A DNA stretch of 64,000 bases from an uncultured Bacillales bacterium (GTDB taxonomy: Bacteria > Bacillota_I > Bacilli_A > RFN20 > CAG-288), in assembly GCA_949287425.1 (NCBI GenBank), contig CASEGJ010000005.1, forward strand, positions 82,955 through 146,954. The letters are read 5' to 3'. Position numbers and translations under genes: made by a program. The notes under the pieces are model-generated. The model was not told where the DNA came from. It saw only the letters and a program-made list of their open reading frames with translations, and searched no databases. Within the stretch, counting starts at the first letter, position 1. Every line of letters begins with the position of its first letter. This document shows, one piece after another, positions 16,843 to 54,242 of the stretch.

Positions 16843-16843
16843 A

Positions 16844-18115: not shown

Positions 18116-18705
18116 TTTTCTCCTAACAACATCTTAGCGACTTTTTCACTCGCTAATGGCAATATCTTCCATTCAGCTAATCTCATTATCCGTTTTTGAA
18201 GGCTTTCGGGAGTATCATCATCTTTTACTTTTACAGCTTTTTGCATAATAATTTTTCCACCATCGGGAATTTCATTGACAAAATGAACACTAGCACCGGA
18301 AACTTTTACTCCATATTCTAATGCCTTTTGATGTACTTTTATTCCATAATAACCTTTTCCACAAAAAGAAGGGATTAATGAAGGGTGAATATTTATTATC
18401 TTGCCATTTAATTCTCTTTCGAAATTAGAAATAAATTCACTTGATAAAATAGCTAAATAACCAGCTAAAACAATCAAACGTATGTTGTTTTCTTTAAGTA
18501 AATTTAAAATATAACTATCATCTTTACTAACATAACTAGGGATATTGTGATTTTTAGCCCTAGTTAAAGCGTAAGCATCCTTTTTGTTAGAAAGGACAAA
18601 TTTTATATCAACATGAGGCATAATTCCCTTTTTAGAAGAAAGAATTAAATGTTCTAAATTAGTTCCGCCTCCAGAAACAAAAACTGCAGTATTTATCTTT
18701 TCCAT
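18112..18705 (-). CDS. purN: phosphoribosylglycinamide formyltransferase
   Basis: 197 aa; formyltransferase motifs (IINIHPSLIP); ends with TGA stop, showing TGA is not Trp here. Confidence 0.85.
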   Translation of the reverse strand: MEKINTAVFVSGGGTNLEHLILSSKKGIMPHVDIKFVLSNKKDAYALTRAKNHNIPSYVSKDDSYILNLLKENNIRLIVLAGYLAILSSEFISNFERELNGKIINIHPSLIPSFCGKGYYGIKVHQKALEYGVKVSGASVHFVNEIPDGGKIIMQKAVKVKDDDTPESLQKRIMRLAEWKILPLASEKVAKMLLGEK

Positions 18706-18707
18706 AA

Positions 18708-19892: not shown

Positions 19893-19893
19893 G

Positions 19894-21665: not shown

Positions 21666-21666
21666 A

Positions 21667-23139
21667 TTAATCTCCTTTATTGTTTCTTTGTGAATGTTTT
21701 TGTTTCCATTCATCAGATATTTTGTTTTCAAAGCGGTTTTTTGAAGCGTTTGATGGTATTTTAGTTGGATAAACTCCATCGAAACACGCCTTACAATATC
21801 CTTGATTGCATTTTCTAGGACAAACTATTTTTTCCAAAGCTTCTAAAGAAAGATAACCGAGTGAATCAACTCCAATTATCTTAGCTATTTCAGGAATTGT
21901 ATGGTGAAAAGCAATCAAATTTTCTTGAGAATCAACATCAGTTCCATAATAACATGGATAAATAAATGGCGGACAAGTTAAACGCATGTGAACTTCTTTA
22001 GCTCCAGCATCTCTAACTAACTTAACTAATCTAGCAGAAGTTGTTCCTCTTACTATAGAATCATCAACTAAAACAACTCTTTTTCCTTGAATAACTTCTT
22101 TAATAGGATTTAATTTAAGTTTGACCATTTGTTCTCTAAGTTTTTGATTACTTGCAATAAAAGTTCTACCTATATATTTATTTTTTAACAGTCCTATTTC
22201 ATAAGGTATTTTAGATTCTTTTGAATATCCTATAGCCGCATCTAATCCTGAATCAGGAACTCCAATTACAACATCAGCATCAACTTTATGCTCTTTAGCT
22301 AATAATTCACCAGCTTTAACGCGAGCTTGATGCACGCTTGCTCCTTCAATAATAGAATCAGAACGCGCAAAATAGATATATTCAAAAATACATAAAGAAG
22401 ACTTCTTGCTATTGCAATGTCTAGTATATGAATTAATAGTTCCATCGAAATTAAAGACTAAAATTTCGCCTGGTTCTACATCTCTAATTAACTTAGCACC
22501 TACGCAATCTAAAGAACAAGATTCAGAAGCTACAACATAACTTCCATCTTCCATTTGACCATAGCAAAGAGGTCTAAAACCATATGGATCACGGCAACAA
22601 ATCAATTTAGAAGGTGTCATCATTACTAAAGAATAAGCTCCGTCAATAACATCCATTGTTTTATCTAAAGCTTCTTCCATAGATTTAGAATTTATTCTTT
22701 CCCTAGTTAAAATGTATGATATAACTTCAGTATCAGTTGTAGTTTGGAAAATACATCCTTCCAATTCTAATTTGTTTCTCAATTCATATGAATTAACTAA
22801 ATTGCCATTATGACATAAAGCTAAATGACCTTTAGAATGATTTACAACCATAGGCTGAGCATTCATTCTATTAGTAACTCCAGAAGTCGAATATCTAACA
22901 TGGCCAATACAAATTGAGCCTTTACCTAGACTTGCTAATCTTTCACTAGTAAAAACATCGTTTAACAAACCTAAATCTTTATAATAGTGAAAAATACCTT
23001 CGTTATTTATTGCAATACCACAAGCTTCTTGACCGCGATGTTGTAAAGCAAATAAACCGCCGTAAGTTAGATTTGCTAAATCTTCTTCTTTTTGACTAAT
23101 AATTCCAAAAACACCACACTCTTCATTTATTTTAGCCAT
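21667..23139 (-). CDS. purF: amidophosphoribosyltransferase
   Basis: MAKINEECGVFGI (propeptide + Ntn Cys); PRTase motif VVLVDDSIVRGTT; C-terminal 4Fe-4S cysteines. Confidence 0.9.
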   Translation of the reverse strand: MAKINEECGVFGIISQKEEDLANLTYGGLFALQHRGQEACGIAINNEGIFHYYKDLGLLNDVFTSERLASLGKGSICIGHVRYSTSGVTNRMNAQPMVVNHSKGHLALCHNGNLVNSYELRNKLELEGCIFQTTTDTEVISYILTRERINSKSMEEALDKTMDVIDGAYSLVMMTPSKLICCRDPYGFRPLCYGQMEDGSYVVASESCSLDCVGAKLIRDVEPGEILVFNFDGTINSYTRHCNSKKSSLCIFEYIYFARSDSIIEGASVHQARVKAGELLAKEHKVDADVVIGVPDSGLDAAIGYSKESKIPYEIGLLKNKYIGRTFIASNQKLREQMVKLKLNPIKEVIQGKRVVLVDDSIVRGTTSARLVKLVRDAGAKEVHMRLTCPPFIYPCYYGTDVDSQENLIAFHHTIPEIAKIIGVDSLGYLSLEALEKIVCPRKCNQGYCKACFDGVYPTKIPSNASKNRFENKISDEWKQKHSQRNNKGD

Positions 23140-23143
23140 GAAG

Positions 23144-23863
23144 TTAGTTTTCTCCCATTAATCTTTTAATAACTTCATGATAAGCTTCTTCAACATTTCC
23201 TAAATCTCTTCTAAATCTATCTTTATCGAGCTTTTCATGAGTTGTCGAATCCCAAAAACGGCAAGTATCAGGAGAAATTTCATCAGCTAAGATGATTGTT
23301 CCATCATTTAACTTACCAAATTCTAATTTAAAATCGACTAAATCGATATTATCTTGTTTTAAGTACTCTCTTAAAATATCGTTAATTTTTAAAGCGTAAT
23401 TAGTAATAGTAGCTAAATCTTCTTTTGAACATAATCCTAAAGCGGCAATATGATAAGAATTAACTAAAGGATCACCTAATTCATCATCTTTATAGCAAAA
23501 TTCTAAAACTGTTGATTTTAAAATTTCACCTTCTTTTAAACCTAATCTTTTAGCTAAAGATCCAGCAGCAATATTTCTAACAATAACTTCAAGAGGAACA
23601 ATTTTACACGCTTTAACTATTGTTTCAGTGTGATTTAATTCTTCTACATAATCAGTAGGAATCCCTTTAGTTTCTAACATTTTCATTAAAAAGTTAGTAA
23701 CTCTATTGTTAATAGCCCCTTTACCGATAATAGTTCCTTTTTTAAGGCCGTTAAAAGCAGTAGCGTCATCTTTATACGAAACGATATAGTAGTTAGGATC
23801 TTCAGTTAAAAAGACCTTCTTAGCTTTACCTTCGTATTTTTGTTCTTTTTTAGTTAAATTCAT
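23144..23863 (-). CDS. purC: phosphoribosylaminoimidazole-succinocarboxamide (SAICAR) synthase
   Basis: Start [18 protein letters not shown] with GGAGG RBS 6 nt upstream; SAICAR synthetase family. Confidence 0.9.
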
Positions 23864-23891
23864 AATATCCTCCATATTTTAACTTTTATTT

Positions 23892-24383
23892 TTAATTGTA
23901 TTTTTTAGAAACTAATTCATTTTTTTCCAAAACTTTATTTCTGTTATCAATTCTAAATTGTTGTAACTTTTCTAATAGTTTTGGTTCATTTAAAGCGAGA
24001 ATTTCAATTGCTAACAAACAAGCGTTACTCGCATTATCAATACCGACACAAGCAACTGGTACACCTTTTGGCATCATAACTGTCGATAATAAAGCGTCCA
24101 TACCTTCTAGGTGTTTACTTGAACAAGGGATACCGATAACTGGTAAAACAGTTGAACTAGCTATAACACCACCAAGATGGGCAGCCATTCCTGCCCCACA
24201 AACAATAACCCCAAAATCGTTTTCAATAGCTTTGTTAGCAAATTCTAAAGCTTCGTTAATGCATCTATGAGCTGAATAGACATGTACCTCAAAAGGAACT
24301 TCAAAATCTTTTAAGACTTGTATTCCTTTTTCCATAATAGGTAAATCAGAATCAGATCCCATAATAAGCGCTACTTTTTTCAT
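23892..24383 (-). CDS. purE: 5-(carboxyamino)imidazole ribonucleotide mutase / AIR carboxylase
   Basis: Start MKKVALIMGSDSDLPIM with GGAGGG RBS; PurE fold; no adjacent purK. Confidence 0.9.
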   Translation of the reverse strand: MKKVALIMGSDSDLPIMEKGIQVLKDFEVPFEVHVYSAHRCINEALEFANKAIENDFGVIVCGAGMAAHLGGVIASSTVLPVIGIPCSSKHLEGMDALLSTVMMPKGVPVACVGIDNASNACLLAIEILALNEPKLLEKLQQFRIDNRNKVLEKNELVSKKYN

Positions 24384-24656
24384 TCTTCCCTCCAAATCGT
24401 AAAAAATAAAAACAATAAAATGAAGTATTAATCCAACTTCACAAAGAACTAGTCAGCAATAAGGCTAATATCAATTTTTCTTGCAATAAATAATAACTTA
24501 GATCACTGATAGCTCTAACGATTACTATCTTACTTAAAATATAAAACACCATAAAAATTTATTCAATAGTTTGAAAATAAAAAAATTATTAAAGCGCTAT
24601 CAATTTGTTTTTTAAGTCAAAATATCTTTTTTACACAAATCTACTATTAAAAATTA

Positions 24657-24685
24657 TTGCTTAGTCTTTTGCTAGTTGTTAATAT
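24657..24685 (+). promoter_or_regulatory. candidate sigma-A promoter for purB (TTGCTT-N17-TAATAT)
   Basis: -35 at 24657-24662, -10 at 24680-24685, GAGGA RBS at ~24702, ATG at 24714. Confidence 0.35.
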
Positions 24686-24713
24686 TAAAAAGTAGAGAAA
24701 AAGAGGATATAAA

Positions 24714-26009
24714 ATGATTGAACGTTACGCTAGCAAACAACTTATCGACTTATTTAATGATGAATCGAGATTCAAAGCCTATTTAAAAACCGAAATTGAA
24801 TGCACTAAAGCTTGGGCTAAAATTGGTGTAGTTCCAATTAAAGATGCTGAACTAATTGAAAAAAACGCTAAAATTGATGTCGCTAAAATTATCGAATTAG
24901 AAAATATCACCCATCATGATATAGTAGCTTTTACTAGAGTCGTAGATACTTATTTAGGTGAAGAAAAAAAGTGGTTGCATTTTGGTTTAACTTCCACTGA
25001 CATCGTCGATACTTCTATGTCATATCTATATAAACAAGCCAATCAAATTATTGAGGATGAATTAGTTTTACTTATTCAAGCTGTTAAACAAAAAGCCATC
25101 CAATATAAAAACACCCCTTGTATAGCTAGAACTCATGGTATGCATGCTGAAGTAACTTCTTTTGGATTAAAATGGGCTTTATATTACGATGAACTTAATA
25201 GAGATTTCAAACGCTTTAAGCAAGCTAGAAAAGATTTAGAAGCCTGTAAAATATCTGGCTCAGTCGGTAATTTTGCTAACGTCCCACCTGAAGTTCAAGA
25301 TTATGTCGCTTCTAGTTTGGGCTTAACAAACACCAATATTTCAACTCAAGTTCTTCAACGCGACAGACATTCTTACTATGCTAGTGTAGTTGCAATAATC
25401 GGCTCAACTATAGAAAAAATATGCTGCGAAATTAGAAATCTATCTAGAACTGAAATCCACGAATTAGAAGAAGGTTTTTCTAAAGGTCAAAAAGGCTCTT
25501 CATCTATGCCTCAAAAAAGAAATCCTATCTCTAGTGAAAATTTAACAGGAGCTGCTAGAATGCTGCGCGGTTATCAAACAACCATTTTAGAAAATAACGC
25601 TTTATATCACGAAAGAGATATTTCCCATTCTTCAGTAGAAAGAGTTGTCTTAGTTGATTTAATTGAATTATTTGAATATATGGTTAGAAGAATGACAAGA
25701 GTCATCAATAATTTAACTATCTTCCCTGATAAGATGCTTGAAAACATTCAAATCACTAAGCAAGCCTTCTTTTCTCAAAGAATCATGTCCAATATCATTT
25801 TGAAAGGATATTCAAGAGAAGAAGCTTATGATTTTGTTCAACCATTAGCTATGAAAGCTGTTCTAGGTGGTCAAAACTTAGAATCTCAACTTAGACAAGA
25901 TCCAACAATTCAAAAAATATTTAATAGTGAAGAATTAGATAACTTATTTGATATTTCTTACTATTTAAAACATGTAGATGATATTTATAAGCGTGTAGGT
26001 TTAGAATAA
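24714..26009 (+). CDS. purB: adenylosuccinate lyase
   Basis: 431 aa; fumarate-lyase family signature GSSSMPQKRNP; N-terminus MIERYASKQL. Confidence 0.9.
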   Translation: MIERYASKQLIDLFNDESRFKAYLKTEIECTKAWAKIGVVPIKDAELIEKNAKIDVAKIIELENITHHDIVAFTRVVDTYLGEEKKWLHFGLTSTDIVDTSMSYLYKQANQIIEDELVLLIQAVKQKAIQYKNTPCIARTHGMHAEVTSFGLKWALYYDELNRDFKRFKQARKDLEACKISGSVGNFANVPPEVQDYVASSLGLTNTNISTQVLQRDRHSYYASVVAIIGSTIEKICCEIRNLSRTEIHELEEGFSKGQKGSSSMPQKRNPISSENLTGAARMLRGYQTTILENNALYHERDISHSSVERVVLVDLIELFEYMVRRMTRVINNLTIFPDKMLENIQITKQAFFSQRIMSNIILKGYSREEAYDFVQPLAMKAVLGGQNLESQLRQDPTIQKIFNSEELDNLFDISYYLKHVDDIYKRVGLE

Positions 26010-27041: not shown

Positions 27042-28277
27042 TTATTTTTCTATTTCATTTTCAAGATTTGACAACATTAATTTAATTCTATTTTCCTGAT
27101 TGACTTTACTTGCGCCTGGATCATAATCAATCGGAGCAATATTAATATCAGGATAGAGTTTTTTAATAGGTCTAACCATTCCTTTTCCAACTATGTGATT
27201 AGGTAAACAACCAAAAGGCTGAGCACAAACAATGTTTTTTATTCCTCTTTCAGCCATATTTACCATTTCAGAAGGAATTAACCACCCTTCTCCCATTTTG
27301 ACACCTTGATCGATAATTTTATGACAGGCGTTTTTTATTTCATCAAAATCTTCATATGAATCAAAATTGTTTTCTTGTAACATCCTGTTCATTTTCTTAT
27401 TTTGATAATTTAAATATTTATAACCTATTTTAGAAAAATGATGGATTAATTTATAGTGGCCGTAATATTTATAATCTATTTGATTATTCACTAGACAATA
27501 TAACAAAAACTCTAATAAAGATGGTACTACTGGTTCAGTATTTTCTTCAATCAAAAAATCGAGAAGATGATTGTTAGCTAACGAGGAATATTTGACAAAA
27601 ATTTCTCCGACAATTCCAACTTTAGGTTTTCTAACACTAGGTAATTTTACTTGTTTAAACTGATTGATAATATATTCATAATTAGATTTATGCCTATTAA
27701 ATTTACGATGATTTAACTGATCAATTAAATAATTTACACATTTATCCTGAATTTGATCAACTTGATTCAAATAAGCTTCATATGGTTTAGTTTGATTATA
27801 TAAAACCATAAGTAAATCGCCATAATACACACTAGATGCAAACTTTAACAAAAGAGGTAAACTCATTGGAAATGAGCGTTCTTTTTCTAAACCTGAAATA
27901 TTTAAAGAAATAACTGGAACTTGTGGAAAAGTCTTTTCCATTGCCTTTTTAATTAAAGGTAAATAGTTAGAAGCACGGCATCCTCCACCAGTTTGAGTAA
28001 TAATAACCGCCACTTTATTCAAATCATATTTTCCTGATTTTAATGCTGAAATAAATGAACCAGTAACTACTAAAGCAGGATAACATGCATCGTTATGAAT
28101 GTTTTTTAAACCTTCATCTTTTATTTCTCTACCTTCATCTAAAATGAGTTCAGCTTTATAACCAGCTTTAAGTAAAACTTCCCTAATCAATTTAAAGTGA
28201 GTAGGTAACATGTTAGGAAGTAAAATCGTATATCCTTCCTTTTTCAACTTCTTAAAAAACTTTTTTCTTTCGCTCAT
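27042..28277 (-). CDS. acyl-CoA dehydratase / CoA-enzyme-activase-associated protein (HgdB/DUF2229-like component)
   Basis: Sits immediately downstream of and overlapping the large activase ORF; start uncertain (MSERKKFF at 28277 or upstream); family assignment by context and gross similarity only. Confidence 0.45.
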   Translation of the reverse strand: MSERKKFFKKLKKEGYTILLPNMLPTHFKLIREVLLKAGYKAELILDEGREIKDEGLKNIHNDACYPALVVTGSFISALKSGKYDLNKVAVIITQTGGGCRASNYLPLIKKAMEKTFPQVPVISLNISGLEKERSFPMSLPLLLKFASSVYYGDLLMVLYNQTKPYEAYLNQVDQIQDKCVNYLIDQLNHRKFNRHKSNYEYIINQFKQVKLPSVRKPKVGIVGEIFVKYSSLANNHLLDFLIEENTEPVVPSLLEFLLYCLVNNQIDYKYYGHYKLIHHFSKIGYKYLNYQNKKMNRMLQENNFDSYEDFDEIKNACHKIIDQGVKMGEGWLIPSEMVNMAERGIKNIVCAQPFGCLPNHIVGKGMVRPIKKLYPDINIAPIDYDPGASKVNQENRIKLMLSNLENEIEK

Positions 28278-31209
28278 AATCTTTTTTCTCTTCAATTGCC
28301 GCTTTTAACGATCTTAAACGTATTCTAACAGCACCTAAATTTGATATTTCATCAATTTTTAGTTGCGTATAAAACTTGCCGTTTGATTCTAAAATAGATC
28401 TAACTTCATCGCTAGTAATAGCATCTAATCCACATCCAAAAGAAACTAACTGAACTAATTCCATATCTTTTTGATTGATAATATAATTACTAGCTAAATA
28501 TAACCTAGCGTGATATGTCCACTGATTTAAAATTTTAGTTGGAACTTTATAAAGCTGTTTGCTAGCTATATAATCTTCGCTAACTACTGCCATATCCAAA
28601 GAATTTATCAAAGTATCTATTCCGTGATTGATTTCTTTGTCGATATGATATGGTCTACCTGCTAAAACGATAATTGTTTTATTTTGTTTCCTGGCAAGAT
28701 TAACAATTTCATCTCCTTTAGCAATTACATCCTCTTTATATTTTAAATAATTCGCTCTTCCACATTTAAATGCCCTATGAATTTTATTATAAGAAAAATT
28801 GTATTTTCCTAGTGCTTTTTTAAGAGTTAAACAAGTCTTTCTAACATCGTTTAAATCAATAAATGGATTTAAAAAATTGTCAGAATTTAATTCTAAATTG
28901 TTCTTTTTTAAAAGCTCACCATAATAAGCGACAACTGGACAATTAAAATGATTATCAGAACGATGCTCATCGATATTATAAGTTGAAGAAGGATAAAATA
29001 TAAAATCGACATTTTTATTCAATAAAGATTCAATATGTCCATGCATTAACTTAGCTGGATAACATATAGTATCAGAAGGAATAGTATGTTGACCTTCAAA
29101 ATAAAGTTGACGAGTTGATTTGTTAGATAAAATTACTTCAAAACCTAAATCAGTAAAAAATCCATCCCAAAAAGGTAAAAATTCATACATCGCTAAACTT
29201 AATGGCAATCCGACTTTTCCAATAGTTTCTTTCTTTTTATCAAGAAGCTTAGTTATTCTAGAATATTTGTAATCATAGAGGTTGAGATTTAAATTAGAAA
29301 CTTCTTTACCTTCGCCTTTTTCGCACTTATTTCCTGAAACAAAACTTCTACCATCGTTAAATTTAATTATTGTCAAATTACAATGAGCTGTACAAGCTCG
29401 ACATATCGTTCCAATTGAAGTGTAACTAAAATTCTCTAATTCTTCTTTAGTAATAATTTTAGAATCAGATGATTTAGCTTTTTCTTTAGCATATAAACAA
29501 GCTCCAAATGCCCCCATTAATCCTGCTATAGATGGTCTAATAGCTTTCTTGTTAGTTTCCATTTCAAATGCTCTTAAAATAGCATCGTTTAAAAAAGTAC
29601 CGCCTTGAACGACAATTTTATCACCTAATTCAGCTGGAGATTTAAATCTAATCACTTTATATATAGCGTTTTTTACTACTGATGAAGATAAACCAGCTGA
29701 AATATCTTCTAAACTCGCTCCTTCTTTTTGAGCTTGTTTAACTGAAGAATTCATAAAAACAGTACATCTTGAGCCTAATTCTACTGGATGTTTAGAATAT
29801 AGACCTAATTTAGCGAAATCGCTAACTCCTATTGACATAGCATTAGCAAAAGATTGTAAAAATGAACCGCATCCTGAAGAACAGGCTTCATTTAACATTA
29901 TTGAATCAATCGCGTGATTTTTAATTTTAAAACATTTAATATCTTGACCACCGATATCGATAATAAAATCGACATCAGGTTCAAAATAGCTAGCAGCTTT
30001 ATAATGAGCAACAGTTTCAACTAAACCATATGGGATTTTTAAAGCTGATTTAATAAGGTTTTCACCATAACCAGTAACTGCACCTGAAACTGTTTTTAAA
30101 TCGTCACTAGCATTTTGATAGATAAGTTTCAATTGTTTAATAATAGTATCGATTGGTTGTCCATTATTAGCTGAATAATGTGAAAATAGTATCTTATTAT
30201 CTTTAGAAAGTAAAACTAACTTTGTCGTAGTTGAGCCAGCATCTATTCCTAAATATGCTTCCCCTTTATATGTAGATAAATCAGAATATTTAACTTTAAC
30301 ATCTTCGTGATCTTTTAAAAATTGAAGGTATTCTTTTTCACTTGAAAATAGCGGTTGAGAATAAATAATTTTCCCTGATAAATCCGCTTTAGAAATAATT
30401 TCTTCAAGCTGATTTAAAGAATATGTTTCCTTTTGACTTTTAGAATAAATTGCCGCACCTAAAGAAACAAAGTTTTTAGCATTTGATGGAAAATTAGCTT
30501 GCTCATCACTTAATTTCAATCTCGATTTAAAAGCGTATTGCAGACCTTTTAAAAAAGATAATGGCCCACCTAAAAACAAAATGTTTCCAGATATTTTTCT
30601 ACCTTGAGCTAATCCAGAAATAGTTTGATCGACTACAGCGAAAAATATCGACATAGCCACATCTTCTCTACTAGCACCTTGATTTAATAATGGTTGAATA
30701 TCTGATTTAGCAAAGACCCCGCATCTAGAAGCGATAGGATAAATCTTTTTATATTTCAAAGACAATTCATCTAATTTAGAAATATCGATATTTAATAATG
30801 CAGCCATCTGATCGATAAATGCCCCTGTACCTCCAGCACAAGTTCCATTCATTCTCTGTTCTAATCCACCGCTAATAAAAATAATCTTGGCATCTTCACC
30901 ACCTAATTCGATAACAGCATCAGTTTGAGGATAATATTTTTTAACAGCCAAATAAGAAGCTTGAACTTCTTGAACAAAACCAATATTAGTTTTACTTGCT
31001 AACCCCATACCAGCTGAACCAGTTATCGAAACGTGAAACAAAATATTTTCATATTGATTTTTAATCTTTTGAATTTGTTCTAAAACGGCTTTTTTAACTT
31101 GAGAATAATGTCTTTCGTACGAGTTATAAACTATATTATTAGCATTATCAATTATAGTAAATTTAACTGTAGTTGAACCGATATCTATACCTAATAAATA
31201 TTCTTCCAT
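28252..31209 (-). CDS. CoA-substrate-specific enzyme activase: two BadF/BadG/BcrA/BcrD-type ATPase modules fused to a C-terminal Cys-containing domain
   Basis: Two actin-fold ATPase N-termini (LLGIDIGSTTVKFTI and AYLGIDAGSTTTKLVL); C-terminal region with CRACTAHC...C cluster; 985 aa. Confidence 0.7.
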   Translation of the reverse strand: MEEYLLGIDIGSTTVKFTIIDNANNIVYNSYERHYSQVKKAVLEQIQKIKNQYENILFHVSITGSAGMGLASKTNIGFVQEVQASYLAVKKYYPQTDAVIELGGEDAKIIFISGGLEQRMNGTCAGGTGAFIDQMAALLNIDISKLDELSLKYKKIYPIASRCGVFAKSDIQPLLNQGASREDVAMSIFFAVVDQTISGLAQGRKISGNILFLGGPLSFLKGLQYAFKSRLKLSDEQANFPSNAKNFVSLGAAIYSKSQKETYSLNQLEEIISKADLSGKIIYSQPLFSSEKEYLQFLKDHEDVKVKYSDLSTYKGEAYLGIDAGSTTTKLVLLSKDNKILFSHYSANNGQPIDTIIKQLKLIYQNASDDLKTVSGAVTGYGENLIKSALKIPYGLVETVAHYKAASYFEPDVDFIIDIGGQDIKCFKIKNHAIDSIMLNEACSSGCGSFLQSFANAMSIGVSDFAKLGLYSKHPVELGSRCTVFMNSSVKQAQKEGASLEDISAGLSSSVVKNAIYKVIRFKSPAELGDKIVVQGGTFLNDAILRAFEMETNKKAIRPSIAGLMGAFGACLYAKEKAKSSDSKIITKEELENFSYTSIGTICRACTAHCNLTIIKFNDGRSFVSGNKCEKGEGKEVSNLNLNLYDYKYSRITKLLDKKKETIGKVGLPLSLAMYEFLPFWDGFFTDLGFEVILSNKSTRQLYFEGQHTIPSDTICYPAKLMHGHIESLLNKNVDFIFYPSSTYNIDEHRSDNHFNCPVVAYYGELLKKNNLELNSDNFLNPFIDLNDVRKTCLTLKKALGKYNFSYNKIHRAFKCGRANYLKYKEDVIAKGDEIVNLARKQNKTIIVLAGRPYHIDKEINHGIDTLINSLDMAVVSEDYIASKQLYKVPTKILNQWTYHARLYLASNYIINQKDMELVQLVSFGCGLDAITSDEVRSILESNGKFYTQLKIDEISNLGAVRIRLRSLKAAIEEKKDYERKKKVF

Positions 31210-32286: not shown

Positions 32287-33567
32287 ATGTCACAATTAGT
32301 AATCCAAGGTTCACAATGGGGCGATGAAGGTAAAGGCAAAATCACTGACTATTTTGCCCAACAAGCCGATATGGTAGTAAGATCCCAAGGCGGAAATAAC
32401 GCCGGTCATTCTATCGTATATAACAATCATCGCTACGCTTTAAAATTAGTTCCTTCTGGAATTTTTAATCCAAATACTATCAATGTTATCGCTAATGGAA
32501 CTGTTGTCAATCTAGAAGCTTTAAAAGGAGAACTAGATTTATTAGAAAGCCAAGGCATAACAAAATATCAACTTGTTATTTCTGATCGAGCTAATATCTT
32601 AATGCCTTATCATATTGATCTTGATGGAGCGAAAGAAGCAAACCTAGGTCAAGCTAAAATAGGTACAACCAAAAAAGGCATTGGACCTTGCTATACTTCC
32701 AAAGCTGAAAGGATTGGCTTAAGAATGGGAGATTTACTTGAAGACGAATATCTTAAAGATCACCTTAAAAGCATTCTACCTATAATTAATATCGAACTGA
32801 AATCTTACAATTTAAAAGAATATAGCTTCGATGAAGTCTACTCGTATTTAAAAAAATACGCTGAAATATTCAAAGACAAAATTACTAACACCTCAATTCT
32901 CATTAACAAATATATAAAAGAAAATAAAAAAGTCCTTTTTGAAGGAGCTCAAGGAGCCATGTTATGTTTAGATCATGGCACTTATCCTTATGTTACTTCT
33001 TCTTCACCTTTAGCAAATGGCGTAAGTTTAAATAGCGGAGTTGCTTGCTATCTTTTAGATAAAGTTTTGGGTGTAGCTAAAGCTTATACTACTAGAGTTG
33101 GCGAAGGCCCTTTCCCTTCTGAACTCTTTGATAAAAATGCCGATTTATTGCGTGAAAAAGGACATGAGTATGGAACAGTTACCAAACGACCAAGAAGAAT
33201 AGGTTATTTAGATTGCGTAGTGCTAAATTACGTTAAAAACATCACTGGCATGCAACATTTAGCTTTAATGTTAGTAGATGTTTTATCAGTTTTAGATGAA
33301 CTTAAAATCTGCGTTTCTTATTCATTAGATGGAAAAACTATCGACTATGTTCCTTCTAATTTATACGCTTATAATAGATGCAAACCAAACTATATTACTC
33401 TACCTACTTTTAAAGAAGATATCTCTAATTGTAAAAGTTATGATGAACTTCCTACTAATTGTAAGAAATATATTGAAGCCATCGAAGAAATTACCGGATT
33501 AAAAGTTTCTATTATTTCAGTCGGTCCAGATAGAAATCAAACTATCGTTAGAGAAAAATTATTCTAA
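32287..33567 (+). CDS. purA: adenylosuccinate synthetase
   Basis: QWGDEGKGKITD P-loop, GNNAGHS, full-length 426 aa. Confidence 0.9.
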   Translation: MSQLVIQGSQWGDEGKGKITDYFAQQADMVVRSQGGNNAGHSIVYNNHRYALKLVPSGIFNPNTINVIANGTVVNLEALKGELDLLESQGITKYQLVISDRANILMPYHIDLDGAKEANLGQAKIGTTKKGIGPCYTSKAERIGLRMGDLLEDEYLKDHLKSILPIINIELKSYNLKEYSFDEVYSYLKKYAEIFKDKITNTSILINKYIKENKKVLFEGAQGAMLCLDHGTYPYVTSSSPLANGVSLNSGVACYLLDKVLGVAKAYTTRVGEGPFPSELFDKNADLLREKGHEYGTVTKRPRRIGYLDCVVLNYVKNITGMQHLALMLVDVLSVLDELKICVSYSLDGKTIDYVPSNLYAYNRCKPNYITLPTFKEDISNCKSYDELPTNCKKYIEAIEEITGLKVSIISVGPDRNQTIVREKLF

Positions 33568-34351: not shown

Positions 34352-36058
34352 ATGGCTGGACAAAAATACAACAATGTCGGTTTACCTTGTGTCAAAGTAT
34401 ACGCCCTAGGCGGGTTAGATGAAAATGGAAAAAACTGTTATTGTATCGAAACTTTAGATGCGATATTTGTAATTGAGTGCGGTTCAAAATACCCTGATTT
34501 ATCAACCCCAGGTGTCGATATAATCATCCCGGATTTTTCATATTTAGAACAAAATAAAGAAAAAGTGAAAGCTGTTATTATTTCTCATGGTCACGATGAT
34601 GAATATAACGCTTTGCCTTATTTATTAAAAAAGATAGGTTTTCACATACCTATTTATACGACTTTCACTACTAAAACTATCATTGAAGAAGACTATGGTA
34701 ACAGATATAAAAACTTCAACTGGAAAATAATTAAACCTTCTGATGATATGTTAATTTCAGGTTATCCATTCCACTTTTTTGCAACTACGCATTCTGTTAT
34801 GGAATCGTTTGGTTTTTCTATTGAAACTCAAGCTGGTAACATAGTTTTTACTGGAAATTTCATCACTGATTTTGGAGCTCAAGGTAACTTTACTATCGAT
34901 GTTCCTAAAATGGCAAAAATCGCTGAAGAGAAAAAGACTTTATTAATGTTATGTGAATCTTCAAGCGCTGATGCTAAAGGTATAGCTTCTCCTACACATA
35001 AATTAACTCCTCATATTAAAAATCTCATTGAAGAAGGTGAAAAAAGAGTCTTTATTGCCACTTACAACCAAAATTTATACAACATCTCTGAAATTGTTAA
35101 ATTAGTTATTGACAATAAGAAAAGACTAGTTATCACTAATCCAAAACTACTAGATGTTTTACCTTATTTTATTTCTAATGGCGATTTAATTATTCCTAGA
35201 GCTAATCAATGTGGAATTCAAGAAATTAACAATTACCCTAGCAAAGATATTGTCGTCTTAATTACTGGAAGAGGAGAAGAATTATTTAACACAATAATTA
35301 GCTTAGCTAAACAAGAAAGCGAACTTTCTAAATATATTACTATCAATAGTAACGATGCGTTTGTTATGGCTGCACCTCCTGCTGCTAGTATTGAAACTCT
35401 AGCTACGGAAGCTGAAGATGAGTTATATAAAACAGATTGCGAAGTAATTTTCTTAAAAAGACAAGATCTTTCTGCAATGCACGCTCAACAAGAAGATATC
35501 AAAATGATGATTTCTATGTTCAATCCTAAATATTATATGCCGGTTCAAGGTGAATTTAGATCTTTGATGGCTAATGCTAAAATCGCAGAAGCTATGGGCT
35601 TTGCTTCAGATAAAATATTCTTGTTAGATAATGGTATGGCTCTTTGTTTTGATAGAGCTGGTAATATAATTCAACCAGTCCCTCAAATATTTACACCTGG
35701 ATCAACTTTTATCGATGGTTTGGGAGTTGGAGATGTAAAAAACAACATCGTCGATGAAAGAAATCTCATGGCTAATTACGGTGTAGCTATTTTATCAGCT
35801 ACCTTCTCATTTAAAAACAAATGTATAATTGGCGAACCTCAAATAACTTTTAAAGGCTTTGTCAATAAAACCGATTCAATCAAAGCGTATAACGGAGCTA
35901 AAAATCTATTGGCATCATATTTAAATAAAATGTTAAATGACGATAAAGCAAATATTGATACATATAAAAACAAAATAATTGAAGCTGTAACTTCTGAAAT
36001 GAGAAGAACAACTGAAAAAGCTCCTCTAATTAGCGTCAATTTAATTAATTTAGATTAA
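34352..36058 (+). CDS. rnj: ribonuclease J (J2-like; metallo-beta-lactamase/beta-CASP) with degenerate motif II
   Basis: Start MAGQKYNNV with AAGGAG RBS; strong RNase J block similarity (VKVYALGGLDENGKNCY...IIPDFSYL), but motif II reads HGHDDE instead of HxHxDH. Confidence 0.8.
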   Translation: MAGQKYNNVGLPCVKVYALGGLDENGKNCYCIETLDAIFVIECGSKYPDLSTPGVDIIIPDFSYLEQNKEKVKAVIISHGHDDEYNALPYLLKKIGFHIPIYTTFTTKTIIEEDYGNRYKNFNWKIIKPSDDMLISGYPFHFFATTHSVMESFGFSIETQAGNIVFTGNFITDFGAQGNFTIDVPKMAKIAEEKKTLLMLCESSSADAKGIASPTHKLTPHIKNLIEEGEKRVFIATYNQNLYNISEIVKLVIDNKKRLVITNPKLLDVLPYFISNGDLIIPRANQCGIQEINNYPSKDIVVLITGRGEELFNTIISLAKQESELSKYITINSNDAFVMAAPPAASIETLATEAEDELYKTDCEVIFLKRQDLSAMHAQQEDIKMMISMFNPKYYMPVQGEFRSLMANAKIAEAMGFASDKIFLLDNGMALCFDRAGNIIQPVPQIFTPGSTFIDGLGVGDVKNNIVDERNLMANYGVAILSATFSFKNKCIIGEPQITFKGFVNKTDSIKAYNGAKNLLASYLNKMLNDDKANIDTYKNKIIEAVTSEMRRTTEKAPLISVNLINLD

Positions 36059-36129
36059 AAAATGGCTAGTTTGTATATACCCTTAATCTAGATAGTTATG
36101 TGGTGATATATCATTTACTAGCCATTTTC

Positions 36130-36780
36130 TTATTCAACTAATTTAGGTCCGTTAGAAGTTCCAATTCTACTAGCTCCAGCTTGAATTAATTCTTCCATAA
36201 ATTCTTTGGTTTTAATTCCACCAGAAGCCTTAATCTTTGGGAAATCTCCGCATACTTCATGGAGCAATTTAACATCTTCAACAGTAGCCCCATACTTAGA
36301 AAAACCAGTAGAAGTCTTAACAAAATCAACACCGGCTTCTTTGCATAGTTCACAAGCTTTAATCTTCTCTTCTTTAGTTAATAGACAACATTCAATAATT
36401 ACTTTTAAAATTATAGGATGCTGCTCAGTATAACAAGTTCTTCTCATTCTTTTTAATTCGTAGAGAATATCATCGTATTTTTTATCTTTTAACCAAGAGA
36501 TATTTATGACCATATCAATTTCATCGGCACCTTCAAAAATAGATTCTTTAGCTTCCTCAATTTTTGCAATTGTTGACATAGCGCCTAATGGAAAACCGAC
36601 AACCGTACAAGTTTTAACATCGCTTCCTTCTAATTGACGATGAACTAATCCAACATAGTCACCATTTACACAACAAGAAGCAAAATTGTACTTTTTAGCT
36701 TCTTGACATAAATCGATAATTTCTTGTTGAGTAGCATCTGCTCTAAGTAAGGTTGAATCAATTAATTTATTATATTCCAT
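36130..36780 (-). CDS. deoC: deoxyribose-phosphate aldolase
   Basis: 216 aa; KASGGIKT Schiff-base lysine motif; class I aldolase TIM barrel. Confidence 0.85.
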   Translation of the reverse strand: MEYNKLIDSTLLRADATQQEIIDLCQEAKKYNFASCCVNGDYVGLVHRQLEGSDVKTCTVVGFPLGAMSTIAKIEEAKESIFEGADEIDMVINISWLKDKKYDDILYELKRMRRTCYTEQHPIILKVIIECCLLTKEEKIKACELCKEAGVDFVKTSTGFSKYGATVEDVKLLHEVCGDFPKIKASGGIKTKEFMEELIQAGASRIGTSNGPKLVE

Positions 36781-36827
36781 AATAAGACCTCTCTTTTAAA
36801 TATCTTACCATATTTAAAGAAAACTCG

Positions 36828-37826
36828 CTAAAAATTAACACCATTAACTTCGACATATGGTGTCGGATTATAATCGGTAGTAGAATTTAATTTCCCACCA
36901 CCGGTGATATTACCAAAAATTTCGCCCCAACCATTTTCATAATTTAAATATTCTTGAAAATCATTATAGTGGTTATATGTGTAAAATACATGCCTATTTG
37001 AAGAGTCTAAAACTTCCATTGGAGTTGAAGTATTATAATATCTAGTATAGACAATTCTACAAGTACCTCTATTTATTCTTTTTCCGTTATTATATGAATA
37101 ATCTCCTATATCTAATTCATAATAAGTAATAAATCCACCAGCGCCATCGATATCAGGTAAAACAGGTTCATATGGATATTTTTCAACATCACCTAAAAAG
37201 ATAGAATGATTTAATCTTAAATACTTGCCCCAAATACTATTTGAAGGATTTCCACTTTTTTTAGATGTGTAATTACTAGGAATATCGTTAAAAGCCCAAA
37301 TATATGCTGCTACTTCTTCTAAACTAACATAAGCACCAGATTTAAAAATTTCATTAACAACATTGTTGTTAGAATCGACAATCTTATATGAAATAGGTTC
37401 GTTTTCAGCATTATATGTATAATATTTCGTAAGGTTTTTATCATATAAACCATCTGTTTTAGGTTGATTGGTAGCTATAGTAGGTTCTTTTTTATTAGGA
37501 ACATCTAAATCACCTGAAAGAAAACCATGCTGACTTCTATAATAAGCATCTAAATTAGATGTAGCTTTTTTATATGAAGAATAAAATTCTTCTTGACTTA
37601 CGCCTATATATGGATCAGGAAAATATTGACTTGAAGAACTAATTAAACTAGAAATAGAACTTGAAGATAATTGACTATTAATACTTTCAGTTGATGAAAC
37701 CGATGAAACTAAATTAGTTGAACTGCCAATTGATTCAGTTGAAGATGAAGATGTTTCAAAATGGAAAGTACAACTAGTAAGTAAAAAAGATATACTGATT
37801 AAAAAGATAGTCTTATTTTTTCTCAT
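36828..37826 (-). CDS. surface lipoprotein with C-terminal barnase/binase-family (guanyl-specific) ribonuclease domain
   Basis: Lipobox ISFLLTSC plus Ser-rich linker. C-terminal VAAYIWAFNDIPSNYTSKKSG...YELDIGDY...GKRINRGTCRIVYT...YNHYNDFQEY follows barnase VADYLQTYHKLPDNYITKSEA...WREADINY...GFRNSDRILYS...TDHYQTFTKI (from memory), including E73, R83/R87 and H102 equivalents. Confidence 0.6.
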   Translation of the reverse strand: MRKNKTIFLISISFLLTSCTFHFETSSSSTESIGSSTNLVSSVSSTESINSQLSSSSISSLISSSSQYFPDPYIGVSQEEFYSSYKKATSNLDAYYRSQHGFLSGDLDVPNKKEPTIATNQPKTDGLYDKNLTKYYTYNAENEPISYKIVDSNNNVVNEIFKSGAYVSLEEVAAYIWAFNDIPSNYTSKKSGNPSNSIWGKYLRLNHSIFLGDVEKYPYEPVLPDIDGAGGFITYYELDIGDYSYNNGKRINRGTCRIVYTRYYNTSTPMEVLDSSNRHVFYTYNHYNDFQEYLNYENGWGEIFGNITGGGKLNSTTDYNPTPYVEVNGVNF

Positions 37827-37857
37827 ATTTAATATCGCCTATAAAATAATACCACAA

Positions 37858-39078
37858 TTAAATTTGGTTATCTTCTTTTTTAATATCTTCAATATATCTA
37901 GTCATATCGAATTTTTCAGTCTTTAAATTTTCTTTCCATTTTAAATTATTATTGGAAATCTTAGATATCTTTTTTAAAGAAGCTCTATTTTTAAAAAGAT
38001 TTAGAAAACTAAAAACAATTGCTAAAAACAACAAACACGCAAATAATATTGTTAAAAAATAGTGAAACTTTAACTTGCTAATTAAAGCCAAAGTTAAAAA
38101 CACGACACTTAAAATAAAACACAAGCTAGCTAACAAAGTAGATGTCACAAACTTAGAATTAGCTTTTTTAGCCTTATTAATTAATATATTAATTGAAATA
38201 GTTGGGCTTTTTGAATGATGTAGTGCTTGATTTAAAGCGATAAAATCTATTTTAGACAATTTTAAATTAGTATTGTTATTAGTTTTAATTTTTGATTTAT
38301 CTAAATTAAGATAAATAGATTTTCCATTTTGATCTTCTAATAAAGCTAAGTTAGATTCTCTATCAAAAACTACATATTTAAAATTGTCTATAGGATAATA
38401 TATATCATCGACTAAAAAATATTCATCGACTAAAGCTAAATTAAAAAAGCCTTGATTTTCAATATAACCTTTATCGTAACTTGGTAAATCGAATTCTAAA
38501 TCAATTTTCTTATTTCCACATTTTAAATTTGATAAATAACTAGTTATGTTATTTAAATTAGAAAAAGTATATTCGATATTTAATTTATCTTCTTGATATG
38601 TCAATTCCTCATTTGTAAACAATATTACTGAATATATTTGAGTGGATCTAATTTTTATATTCAAATTAGAAAAATATCTAATTAACTGTTTTTTAAATTT
38701 TTTCATTTTCAAATATGGATTTTCTCTAGTAACAGTTAATTTTTCGTCATTTTTAGAATATGTTAAACTAACTTCTTTTTTAGATTTATATTTTAACTCG
38801 CCTAAATAGTTACATTTTTGGACTAAAACTAAATTATCTTTAACAATTAAAACATAGTCCATTTTTACTATATTATTCCCTTTAGAATTAAATAAAATTA
38901 CATCCTTAAAACACTTGTCGGAATTTTTATCTAACAAATCAAAAATAGTACTATTTCTATTGTATTCCTCTTCAGAAATATTAAATGAGGTATAAGAATT
39001 AAATGTCAGATAATTATCTGCTTTATTCAATTTATCTAACTGAATTACACAATCTTCTTTTTTTAAACTCAAATCCAT
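37858..39078 (-). CDS. NERD (nuclease-related domain) protein with C-terminal transmembrane segments
   Basis: KMDYVLIVKDNLVLVQKCNYLGEL resembles the NERD core (hhDhlhh..ghhhhE.KN..G); two hydrophobic helices near the C-terminus; 31 nt upstream of the RNase lipoprotein gene on the same strand. Confidence 0.4.
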   Translation of the reverse strand: MDLSLKKEDCVIQLDKLNKADNYLTFNSYTSFNISEEEYNRNSTIFDLLDKNSDKCFKDVILFNSKGNNIVKMDYVLIVKDNLVLVQKCNYLGELKYKSKKEVSLTYSKNDEKLTVTRENPYLKMKKFKKQLIRYFSNLNIKIRSTQIYSVILFTNEELTYQEDKLNIEYTFSNLNNITSYLSNLKCGNKKIDLEFDLPSYDKGYIENQGFFNLALVDEYFLVDDIYYPIDNFKYVVFDRESNLALLEDQNGKSIYLNLDKSKIKTNNNTNLKLSKIDFIALNQALHHSKSPTISINILINKAKKANSKFVTSTLLASLCFILSVVFLTLALISKLKFHYFLTILFACLLFLAIVFSFLNLFKNRASLKKISKISNNNLKWKENLKTEKFDMTRYIEDIKKEDNQI

Positions 39079-39190
39079 AACTACATAGTATTATAAGGCA
39101 TTGTTAAGCAAAAAAAGAATAATTTCCTTGTAAATTCTTCCTTAGTTATGTTAATATAAATCGGTATGTGAAAGGAGTGAATTATTTTAT

Positions 39191-39457
39191 ATGGCACAAA
39201 TTAAGTCACAAATGAAAAGAATCCTCACAAATGAAAAAGCTCACGTTGCTAATTCTCAACAAAAATCTGCAGTTAGAACTTCTATTAAGAAAGTCAAACT
39301 CGCTGTTGAAGCTAAAGATTTAGCTAAGGCTGAAGAATTGTTAGCTAAAGCTACCTCTTTAATCGATAAAAGCGTCAGTGATGGTATTCAAAAGCAAAAT
39401 ACTGCTAATCGTCAAAAAGCCAGCTTAAACAAATTAGTTAACACTTTACGCGCTTAA
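39191..39457 (+). CDS. rpsT: 30S ribosomal protein S20
   Basis: 88 aa, MAQIKSQMKRILTNEK..., GAAAGGAG RBS. Confidence 0.9.
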   Translation: MAQIKSQMKRILTNEKAHVANSQQKSAVRTSIKKVKLAVEAKDLAKAEELLAKATSLIDKSVSDGIQKQNTANRQKASLNKLVNTLRA

Positions 39458-39484
39458 TTAATTTAATTTTACTTTATAAACTAA

Positions 39485-39516
39485 CTACTAAGCTTTTTGT
39501 CTTAGTAGTTTTTTTA
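39485..39516 (+). terminator. intrinsic terminator after rpsT (overlaps the holA stop on the opposite strand)
   Basis: ACTACTAAG-ctttttgt-CTTAGTAGT followed by TTTTTTTATTT. Confidence 0.65.
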
Positions 39517-53895: not shown

Positions 53896-54107
53896 GTTTT
53901 ATAAAACCTCCTTGTTAAAACATCTAACAAAAATAATATACAACTTATTTGAGTTTTTAACAATTAAATTGCATAACATTGCTAATTATTTAATTAACTT
54001 TTGCGTTTAACTATTTAATCACGATTATCTTTAGTTAACTTTTGGGCAACTTTTTTCAATTTCCTCTTTTATTTTTATTGAATATAACATATAATAATAA
54101 AGCGTTT

Positions 54108-54198
54108 GGAGGAATACCCAAGTGGCTGAAGGGGCGGGCTTGGAAAGCTCGTAGACATGTAACAGTGTGCAAGGGTTCAAATCCCTTTTCCTCCGCCA
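54108..54198 (+). tRNA. tRNA-Ser (anticodon GGA), long variable arm
   Basis: Acceptor GGAGGAA/TTCCTCC + G + CCA; anticodon arm CGGGC-TTGGAAA-GCTCG; long extra arm; GGTTCAAATCC T-loop. Confidence 0.85.
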
Positions 54199-54214
54199 GG
54201 TTAATTAAAATTTT

Positions 54215-54242
54215 CTCGATTTACTAAATCGAGTTTTTTTAT
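54215..54242 (+). terminator. intrinsic terminator after tRNA-Ser
   Basis: CTCGAT-ttactaa-ATCGAG followed by TTTTTTTTATTT. Confidence 0.65.

Follow-up and report, generated by a model that had tools for sequence, protein, structure and literature searches.

Background

The closest described enzymes to the protein analyzed here are barnase, binase, and balifase. In Bacillus, binase and balifase serve in nutrient scavenging and are induced by phosphate starvation (PMC5021464). The genes of barnase and binase lie outside an operon with an inhibitor, and only that of balifase is found in one (PMC5021464). A second point of reference is provided by the nucleases of mollicutes. Genes of the MAG_5040 type are located beside an SBP and an ABC importer, and their products have been proposed to feed nucleotide salvage (PMC3585158, PMC11729948); in Mycoplasma, SNase lipoproteins encoded next to ABC importers represent an accepted salvage paradigm (PMC3585158). 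In the literature searched, no barnase-type RNase that is itself a lipoprotein has been described.

Here, we report on such a protein, which is encoded in a 64-kb stretch of DNA (the window) and belongs to a large family. We regard it as a Sec-exported, lipid-anchored, digestive barnase-like RNase of the cell surface that feeds nucleotide salvage, a reading to which we give a probability of about 0.6.

Gene, lipoprotein signal, and conserved module

The features of the locus are summarized in Table 1. The original prediction gave a 332-aa ORF, short gaps on both sides, and a neighbor on the same strand, and the ORF list agrees: the RNase gene is separated from the NERD-like gene by 31 nt upstream and from deoC by 47 nt downstream. 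The latter gene is also on the same strand and is preceded by a strong SD. Terminator-like sites were absent from the neighborhood scanned (35900-39500). The NERD-like gene and the RNase gene may share a transcript, which possibly extends to deoC. Promoter-like sites occur at chance level and do not inform operon structure.

Table 1. Coordinates of the lipoprotein RNase gene, its regions, and its neighbors in the window
Feature	Position	Strand	Basis or remark
Lipoprotein RNase gene, complete, 332 aa	36828..37826	-	ORF list, homologues; stop codon 36828-36830
Signal peptide and lipobox (aa 1-19, MRKNKTIFLISISFLLTS/C)	37770..37826	-	Sequence, conserved Cys column
Ser-rich disordered linker/stalk (aa 20-65)	37632..37769	-	pLDDT <50 for aa 23-65
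Conserved N-terminal domain, function unassigned (aa 66-164)	37335..37631	-	Two helices and a four-strand beta meander
Barnase/N1-T1-like RNase domain (aa 165-295)	36942..37334	-	Predicted catalytic E237 at 37116-37118, H286 at 36969-36971
Conserved C-terminal extension (aa 296-332: YENGWGEIFGNITGGG...DYNPTPYVEV)	36831..36941	-	Near-invariant motifs; barnase is without it
NERD-like protein, 406 aa, two C-terminal TM helices, upstream neighbor	37858..39078	-	ORF list, NERD 20.2 bits
deoC (deoxyribose-phosphate aldolase), downstream neighbor	36130..36780	-	TIGR00126, 262 bits

The N-terminus (MRKNKTIFLISISFLLTSC) begins with a charged n-region and continues through a hydrophobic core to the lipobox L-T-S-C. 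Divided as MRKNK-TIFLISISFLL-TSC, it matches the pattern [LVI][ASTVI][GAS]C with the Cys at position 19. Among 38 homologues, this Cys column is conserved to at least 90%, a lipobox-like motif is present in 93 of 120 relatives, and Cys19 is the predicted lipid-anchor residue. The Ser-rich stretch that follows is predicted to be disordered; its length and composition vary among homologues, many of which have Big_2 Ig-like domains that replace or extend it. The placement of the RNase domain behind a lipobox and a Ser-rich linker, as first proposed, is thus borne out by the motif, the Cys column, and the disorder, and the protein is probably tethered to the cell surface by a lipid anchor.

The conserved unit comprises ~265 aa and is larger than the C-terminal ~130 aa that had been described as barnase-like; the similarity itself holds for aa ~165-295. 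This region is preceded by a ~100-aa N-terminal domain with the motif YRSxHGF(M/L)SG..D...Q.PT and followed by a 37-aa C-terminal extension with the near-invariant motifs GWG..FGN.TGGG and YNPTPY, for which model confidence is mixed (pLDDT 52-94). When the C-terminal 173 aa were modeled alone with AF2, confidence fell to pLDDT 44, which appears to be a sign of dependence between the domains.

The first search returned at least 2,751 homologous clusters at 90% identity, and relatives are encoded in no fewer than 496 species-level genomes. All of the 80 loci that were kept originate from gut MAGs. Module identity to the 120 best matches is 45-63%. The listed family members are called “hypothetical protein” only, without any functional name, and no Pfam or NCBIfam assignment was found for the family. 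As judged from its sequences, the family forms a branch that has diverged deeply within the microbial barnase/N1-T1 superfamily, to which it adds a multi-domain, probably membrane-tethered form of much larger size.

Barnase-like fold and predicted catalytic residues

Alignment of the protein with barnase, binase, and RNase Sa by MAFFT L-INS-i, carried out unsupervised, recovered every motif pairing that had been proposed from the sequence. Helix 1 is paired as VAAYIWAFNDIPSNY versus VADYLQTYHKLPDNY, and barnase E73/D75, R83/R87, and H102/Y103 correspond to E237/D239, R253/R257, and H286/Y287, respectively. In the guanine-recognition loop, barnase E60-G-K-L63-P64 is aligned with E220-x-x-L223-P224. 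The preceding loop has been remodeled to GD..KYPY, which precludes a prediction of base specificity. No variation is seen at E237, H286, R253, R257, K190, Y287, D239, or E220 in any of the 121 family sequences; K190 lies one position away from barnase K27 in an ungapped alignment. With 2,751 homologous clusters for the ORF, the motif match is far beyond chance. The conservation of catalytic-equivalent residues across the alignment is a signature of purifying selection on the predicted active site, and the Glu, Arg, and His equivalents named in the original prediction hold.

PF00545 scored 15.3 bits against the query (E 0.03), which is below the 24-bit Pfam gathering cut-off, but it is the top family for the query and for 37 of 38 homologues (best E 7.4e-5), which indicates remote homology rather than none. 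The expected match to this family was therefore obtained as the top rank and not as a score above the cut-off. Barnase was the top PDB sequence match of the family profile. When that profile was compared by hhalign with the single barnase sequence, only helix 1 was aligned, with a probability of 8.8%, and phmmer with the query against PDB sequences returned nothing relevant. The predicted structure has N-terminal helices on a five-strand antiparallel sheet, the alpha+beta fold of barnase type, with helix 1 and the five strands in barnase order. The structural part of the proposal is upheld by this model and not by Foldseek, which found no match in the PDB. Together, these results support the view that aa 165-295 are an RNase domain of the barnase/N1-T1 type whose catalytic residues are intact.

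The query is unique in lacking an 11-aa loop that in most members follows beta2, beside E237/D239. A disulfide between Cys229 and a Cys of this loop, both of which are lost in the query, was considered and rejected, as covariation of the two is loose (97 sequences with both, 19 with the first only, 2 with the second only, and 3 with neither).

Gene neighborhoods and a probable nutritional role

Within 8 kb, 29 of 74 family loci contain a gene of nucleic-acid or nucleotide catabolism; the other 45 are without recognizable nucleic-acid context. A recurrent operon has the order ABC permeases, SBP lipoprotein, SNase lipoprotein, OB-fold lipoprotein, and RNase lipoprotein, and is convergent with SurE, DHH, DHH, HD, and TK genes. 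A nuclease lipoprotein, an SBP/ABC importer, and nucleotide-processing enzymes occur together at loci L003, L020, L025, L039, and L053, among others. At L001, Endonuclease_1 and a phosphoribosyltransferase are neighbors. In the window, deoC is the sole catabolic neighbor, and its substrate is a deoxyribose rather than a ribose compound; neither an importer nor a nucleotidase gene is found next to the RNase gene. All of the de novo purine pathway is encoded by the organism, for which purine salvage is therefore not obligatory. The gene neighborhoods of the relatives favor nutritional scavenging of nucleic acids, and of the three functions suggested at the outset, the nutritional one is best supported by them.

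A mechanism can be outlined for this role. After export via Sec, a lipid anchor at Cys19 would hold the protein at the cell surface, where the disordered Ser-rich stalk (aa 20-65) would keep the ~265-aa module off the membrane. If the enzyme works as barnase does, E237 would serve as the general base and H286 as the general acid, with R253, R257, and K190 binding the scissile phosphate. Cleavage of RNA outside the cell would proceed via 2',3'-cyclic phosphate intermediates and leave oligo- and mononucleotides with a 3'-phosphate. The N-terminal domain, the C-terminal extension, and the catalytic core would form one folding unit, with the added parts possibly serving in substrate binding or stabilization. 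Products would then be trimmed, dephosphorylated, and imported for nucleoside catabolism and salvage; deoC adjoins the gene here, and in many relatives equivalent functions may be provided by the SNase and OB-fold lipoproteins, the ABC importer, SurE 5'/3'-nucleotidase, two NrnA-like DHH phosphoesterases, an HD hydrolase, and thymidine kinase. Export of the unfolded precursor would protect the producer, with no need for a linked inhibitor.

A broader proposal, which we put forward tentatively and consider rather doubtful as a whole, is that the N-terminal domain is an obligatory in-cis partner for folding and possibly a gate or inhibitor of the active site until export, taking the place of barstar. 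The family, together with the SNase/OB-fold lipoproteins, the ABC importer, and the SurE/NrnA/HD/TK genes, would then constitute a “nucleic-acid utilization locus” of uncultured gut Bacillota, like polysaccharide utilization loci.

A surface RNase might also act on RNA of the host or community for purposes other than nutrition, with host extracellular RNA or miRNA, immune-stimulatory RNA, the biofilm matrix, or phage RNA as targets. Surface nucleases of Mycoplasma are also virulence and NET-evasion factors (PMC9740415, PMC11729948), the family members come from gut metagenomes, and purine salvage is not strictly needed by the organism. We consider this unlikely, as the genes to which the family is recurrently linked encode importers, nucleotidases, NrnA, and TK, which process products for uptake, and are not genes of adhesion or immune evasion. 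The nutritional reading suggests that extracellular RNA is a nutrient source in the gut, and cultivation may gain from a supply of RNA or nucleosides. It also provides a testable function for a common gene of uncultured gut bacteria, including reduced-genome RF39-like lineages.

Immunity, toxicity, and catalytic competence

The original prediction stated that no barstar is encoded near the gene and treated this as an anomaly. The first part is confirmed. No barstar was found in the window or next to any of 74 loci, and a dedicated barstar HMM, built from 81 homologues and run on the six-frame translation of the 64-kb window plus 90 loci (1.16 Mb in total), had a best match of E 0.57, compared to 7e-31 for the positive control. 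The absence of barstar was judged by this HMM instead of by the Pfam scan of 74 small ORFs, for which 25 of 92 families are listed. The second part does not stand: because barnase and binase are themselves unlinked to barstar, a missing linked inhibitor is no puzzle, and PMC5021464 shows that linkage is not a rule of the family.

The same data bear on whether the protein is an antibacterial toxin, contact-dependent or secreted, with an immunity protein that is unrecognized or encoded elsewhere. Barnase-fold domains do serve as modules of polymorphic toxins (PMC3482391), surface display would fit contact killing, and the search for inhibitors reached the window and 90 loci rather than the whole genome. 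On the other hand, no small neighboring ORF, downstream or otherwise, is conserved across the 74 loci, and the C-terminus is not polymorphic, with the module identity to the 120 best matches given above. The N-terminus is a plain lipoprotein signal, without an LXG, WXG, RHS, or filamentous trafficking domain. The neighbors are catabolic enzymes and importers, and it is not apparent how an enzyme held by a lipid tether would reach the inside of a target cell. The contact-dependent toxin initially suggested is not supported, given the missing small ORF, the missing barstar, and the lack of a polymorphic C-terminus, and we regard a toxic function as quite improbable.

Less probable still is a catalytically inactive lipoprotein that retains the barnase fold and binds RNA or nucleotides, for example to capture substrate for an importer. 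Such a role would suit the many loci where the gene is surrounded by those for SBP and OB-fold binding lipoproteins, as well as the large extra domains and the insertions in the base-recognition loop compared to barnase. It is opposed by the invariance of E237, H286, R253, R257, K190, Y287, and D239 in all 121 sequences.

The NERD-like neighbor

The upstream neighbor had been named a NERD protein. Its own score against NERD (PF08378) is 20.2 bits and falls below the cut-off of 22.1; six remote homologues (P0126-P0130 and P0133) pass at 25-37 bits, and a NERD assignment by transitivity through them is plausible. The initial homologue search with this ORF retrieved only itself, and an exhaustive search detected 12 relatives among 1.84 billion representatives. 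The three closest homologues share the same backbone (holA-S20, the NERD-like gene, and deoC) without an RNase gene, and in two of the three, on three contigs, the NERD-like gene directly abuts deoC. At L086, a 351-aa ORF upstream of the NERD-like gene was checked as a candidate relative of the RNase and is not one. The NERD-like gene is a lineage-specific backbone gene with no conserved RNase partner, and the RNase gene is best read as inserted into a pre-existing NERD-like/deoC junction. A two-gene nuclease system, in which the NERD-like membrane protein serves as partner, immunity factor, or sensor, would fit two genes on one strand that are 31 nt apart with no terminator-like site between them, but is scarcely credible given only 12 relatives, the lack of a NERD-like neighbor at all 74 other RNase loci, and the contradicting synteny, which together refute the RNase/NERD pairing once proposed and remove the false lead of an RNase/NERD “system” with mysterious immunity.

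Comparison with known systems

Compared to barnase, binase, and balifase, the family keeps the order of helix 1 and five strands and the positions of the catalytic Glu/His, Arg/Arg/Lys, and Tyr. Export by a signal peptide, predicted for the family, is also shared, as is the lack of linkage to barstar seen for the barnase and binase genes. These enzymes are free secreted proteins of ~110 aa, whereas the query is a 332-aa lipoprotein. Relative to barnase, the family has a beta3-beta4 hairpin that is 14 aa longer, an insertion in the guanine-recognition loop, the extra ~100-aa N-terminal domain, and the 37-aa C-terminal extension; most members, unlike the query, also have the 11-aa loop after beta2. 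The barnase-barstar pair differs in its inhibitor, of which no homologue was seen in the 64-kb window and 90 loci. RNase Sa of Streptomyces aureofaciens is a soluble secreted enzyme of 96 aa without the barnase-type N-terminal helices that the family keeps.

Barnase-like modules of polymorphic toxin and CDI systems share with the query the RNase fold and its probable presentation at the surface. In those systems, long trafficking N-termini are joined to hypervariable C-terminal toxins, with an immunity gene immediately downstream; none of these features is present at the query locus. Instead, the family has only a lipoprotein signal with a linker or Big_2 domains, and the genes downstream, which vary from locus to locus, have housekeeping or catabolic functions.

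The nutritional nucleases of mollicutes (M. agalactiae MAG_5040, and M. bovis MnuA with a 5'-nucleotidase) are lipoprotein-anchored and come from reduced-genome relatives within the Bacillota. These enzymes are of the SNase/thermonuclease or MnuA type, metal-dependent, and nonspecific for the sugar, whereas the query is a barnase-fold RNase of the metal-independent type. In many family loci, though with only deoC adjacent in the window, SBP, SNase, OB-fold, RNase, and ABC genes are combined in operons, an arrangement like that of the MAG_5040-type genes.

RNase fold and active site

The 332-aa RNase lipoprotein is a real feature of the window. Remote homology to barnase and the N1/T1 fold, with an intact active site, is accepted with a probability of about 90%, because independent lines of evidence converge despite weak single-sequence statistics. 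PF00545 matched the protein at E 0.03 and 15.3 bits (cut-off 24 bits), hhalign against the barnase sequence aligned helix 1 alone, phmmer against PDB sequences gave no relevant match, and Foldseek with the predicted model against the PDB gave no match at all. PF00545 was the commonest Pfam match across the family (37 of 38 members, best E 7.4e-5). The family profile, searched against 177,635 PDB sequences, ranked barnase first, weakly (E 0.23-0.35).

Unsupervised alignment by L-INS-i to the sequences of barnase, binase, and RNase Sa paired barnase P21, N23, and Y24 with P183, N185, and Y186; E60-x-x-L63-P64 with E220-x-x-L223-P224; E73 and D75 with E237 and D239; R83 and R87 with R253 and R257; and H102 and Y103 with H286 and Y287. 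K190 lies one position away from barnase K27 in an ungapped alignment. K190, E220, E237, D239, R253, R257, H286, and Y287 are invariant in 121 of 121 family sequences, which bears out the Glu, Arg, and His equivalents first read from the sequence, and RNase activity would be expected. The protein falls below the formal PF00545 threshold and belongs with barnase by fold and active site. The most fitting description is a lipid-anchored, multi-domain branch of the barnase superfamily that has diverged strongly.

Architecture of the module

At its N-terminus, MRKNKTIFLISISFLLTSC, the protein has a charged n-region followed by a hydrophobic core and then the lipobox L-T-S-C; among 38 aligned homologues, at least 90% keep this Cys. 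A Ser-rich stretch, residues 23-65, is predicted to be disordered. About one third of homologues carry Big_2 Ig-like domains between lipobox and module; enzymes displayed on the surface typically have spacers of this sort.

The RNase domain had been placed in the C-terminal ~130 aa; homologues align across aa 66-332, and the conserved module is larger. A conserved ~100-aa domain (motif YRSxHGFMSGxIDxQDQxPT) precedes the RNase core and is modelled as two helices and a four-strand meander (pLDDT 82-97), with no PDB fold match for aa 66-164. The core reached pLDDT 44 when modelled without this domain and 80-95 with it. One HMMER alignment set the meander on barnase strands beta3-beta5 of a circular permutant (E 0.23); this weak alignment, which is not relied upon, hints that the domain may be a degenerate partial duplication.

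The beta3-beta4 hairpin of the core is 14 residues longer than that of barnase, and the base-recognition loop has an insertion relative to barnase. An 11-aa loop (TGTDCDPSYxA) following beta2, the strand of the catalytic Glu/Asp, is carried by the other 119 relatives. Only two proteins have no such loop, the window protein (gap between aa 243 and 245) and P0001, its 99% twin; both also lack the usually conserved Cys229. A 37-aa extension (GWGE.FGNITGGG...YNPTPYV) follows the core. Unlike the window protein, many relatives (e.g., P0006, P0020, P0040) run 20-40 aa past YNPTPYV; this tail is poorly conserved and contains many aromatic and hydrophobic residues.

Table. Coordinates of the RNase locus, other window features, and loci of relatives
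Feature	Coordinates	Strand	Remark
406-aa NERD-like ORF	37858..39078	-	ORF list
332-aa RNase lipoprotein ORF	36828..37826	-	ORF list; 31 nt downstream of 406-aa ORF
N-terminal domain, aa 66-164	37335-37631	-	
deoC	36130..36780	-	TIGR00126, 262 bits; 47 nt downstream of 332-aa ORF
dut	1688-2131		just upstream of the 240-aa and 140-aa ORFs
240-aa ORF	3603-4325	+	Lys-rich C-terminal half, no Pfam match; stop overlaps start of 140-aa ORF
140-aa ORF	4325-4747	+	no NCBIfam match
tRNA-Asp(GTC), tRNA-Phe(GAA)	10231-10400	+	tandem
De novo purine pathway	13117-26009, 32287-33567		
AICARFT-only PurH	18708-19892		
PurO-like IMP cyclohydrolase	19894-20619		58 bits, below 150-bit NCBIfam cut-off
417-aa ORF	27042-28295	-	no Pfam or NCBIfam match
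985-aa BcrAD_BadFG/DUF2229 "CoA enzyme activase" fusion	28252-31209	-	overlaps 417-aa ORF
tRNA-Ser(GGA)	54108-54198	+	
Recurrent locus	L020:600-13824, L025:30-13517, L039:26-13434, L053:347-13393		
Tandem family paralogues, 605 + 402 aa	L029:8001-~11000		Ca. Limihabitans stercoravium

The ORFs at 10266-10481 and 54042-54227 were rejected as genes, being mere translations across tRNA genes.

Family size and distribution

The family comprises at least 2,751 clusters at 90% identity (E 1e-3 or better), and 496 genomes among GTDB species representatives hold a relative. The best matches share 45-63% identity across about 77-100% of the query; the closest species representative reaches 57%, and therefore the window's own species is apparently absent from that set. 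Members listed are nearly all nameless, the few names being "hypothetical protein"; no NCBIfam model covers the family, and the literature searched gave no description of a barnase-like lipoprotein family of this kind. All 80 loci retained come from gut or faecal MAGs, with submitter labels including Bacilli bacterium, Coprobacillus sp. CAG:698, Ca. Enterosoma, Ca. Limihabitans, Acholeplasmatales, Anaeroplasmataceae, Erysipelotrichaceae, Clostridia, and Eubacteriales. Their G+C content ranges from 25% to 57%; that of the window is ~29%.

Neighbourhoods and possible functions

Three functions had been offered for the lipoprotein, and family neighbourhoods favour the nutritional one. Genes of nucleic-acid or nucleotide catabolism lie within 8 kb in 29 of the 74 independent family loci, and contexts are otherwise varied. 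The most striking arrangement (L003/L033, L014, L020, L025, L039, L053, and others; partial in further loci) can be labelled a "nucleic-acid utilisation" locus. One strand encodes, in order, an ABC ATPase and two permeases, an SBP lipoprotein, an SNase-domain lipoprotein, a 700-1,070-aa lipoprotein (a ~1,000-aa form with a tRNA_anti-codon-type OB-fold and aBig_2, or a shorter form with aBig_2 only), and the RNase lipoprotein; the last four of these products, all exported and encoded one after another, carry a lipobox each. Convergent to this operon are genes for SurE (5'/3'-nucleotidase), two DHH/DHHA1 NrnA-like phosphoesterases, an HD hydrolase, and thymidine kinase. The SurE family has 3'-nucleotidase activity, which would match the 3'-phosphate products expected from barnase-type cleavage. 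Thymidine kinase with an ExoIII-type nuclease is another recurrent context, and L001 has Endonuclease_1 and a phosphoribosyltransferase. The window locus is without the importer and nucleotidase genes present in relatives, and the 140-aa ORF once read as DNPH1-like gave no NCBIfam match.

The missing adjacent barstar had been considered anomalous. Neither flanking gap (31 nt and 47 nt) fits a barstar-sized ORF, as originally stated. The barstar search covered the window and 90 fetched loci (1.16 Mb in six-frame translation; among them the 74 independent loci, whose flanks extended as far as 8 kb on either side): an HMM from 81 barstar homologues gave no match better than E 0.57 (positive control 7e-31), and clustering of all neighbouring ORFs revealed no small gene conserved beside the RNase. 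An operon of RNase and inhibitor is reported as a unique feature of balifase (PMC5021464), and the immunity puzzle was rejected on this ground. An unlinked or unrelated inhibitor elsewhere in the genome is possible.

The proposed RNase/NERD pair is refuted from both sides, as deoC abuts the NERD-like gene in L087, L088, and L089 and a NERD-like neighbour occurs in 0 of 74 RNase loci. The NERD name itself is plausible by way of homologues: the 406-aa membrane protein scores 20.2 bits (threshold 22.1), and six remote relatives pass. A word-indexed homologue search found the protein itself alone, and an exhaustive HMMER search yielded 12 relatives among 1.84 billion representatives: three full-length (33-39% identity), one of 226 aa matched in its C-terminal half only (35%), and eight of ~290 aa (21-25%), six of these eight being above the Pfam threshold. 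The ~290-aa relatives have no C-terminal TM region.

The window and the contigs of the three close homologues share the backbone PPIase, ABC, ABC-2, holA, S20, NERD-like ... deoC, RNase J; in L086 a two-component system lies between the NERD-like gene and deoC. Because this NERD-like/deoC backbone is kept, with a direct junction in three contigs, the window RNase gene appears to be an insertion specific to its lineage, at a junction that already existed. In the few low-GC relatives with the NERD-like family (L086-L090), it always occupies the same S20/holA ... deoC position. A 351-aa upstream ORF in L086 proved unrelated to the RNase. The NERD-like, RNase, and deoC genes of the window run head-to-tail, and co-transcription is possible since 35900-39500 holds no terminator-like hairpin and promoter-like hexamers around the locus occur only at chance level.

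Proposed mechanism and comparison with known systems

The nutritional reading suggests the following course. The precursor would be exported unfolded and lipidated at Cys19, and the module would be displayed on a flexible stalk, where the E237/H286 acid-base pair would cut extracellular RNA endonucleolytically. Products would be processed further, imported, and then salvaged or catabolised; deoC adjoins in the window. Numerous auxotrophies have been noted in reduced-genome gut Bacilli of the RF39 type (PMC6784871). A full set of genes for de novo purine synthesis lies in the window (purF, purD, purN, a fused 1,241-aa FGAM synthase, purM, purE, purC, purB, purH, purA, and a PurO-like cyclohydrolase), with the final step split between PurH and the cyclohydrolase. 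Therefore, the RNase does not compensate for purine auxotrophy, and its benefit may be ribose, phosphate, pyrimidines, or simple economy.

In mycoplasma, an SBP (P80), the SNase lipoprotein MAG_5040, and an ABC importer have been read as a system for scavenging nucleotide precursors (PMC3585158), an arrangement mirrored by the recurrent operon of this family. By analogy, the window protein would resemble barnase and binase in chemistry and the surface nucleases of mollicutes in physiology.
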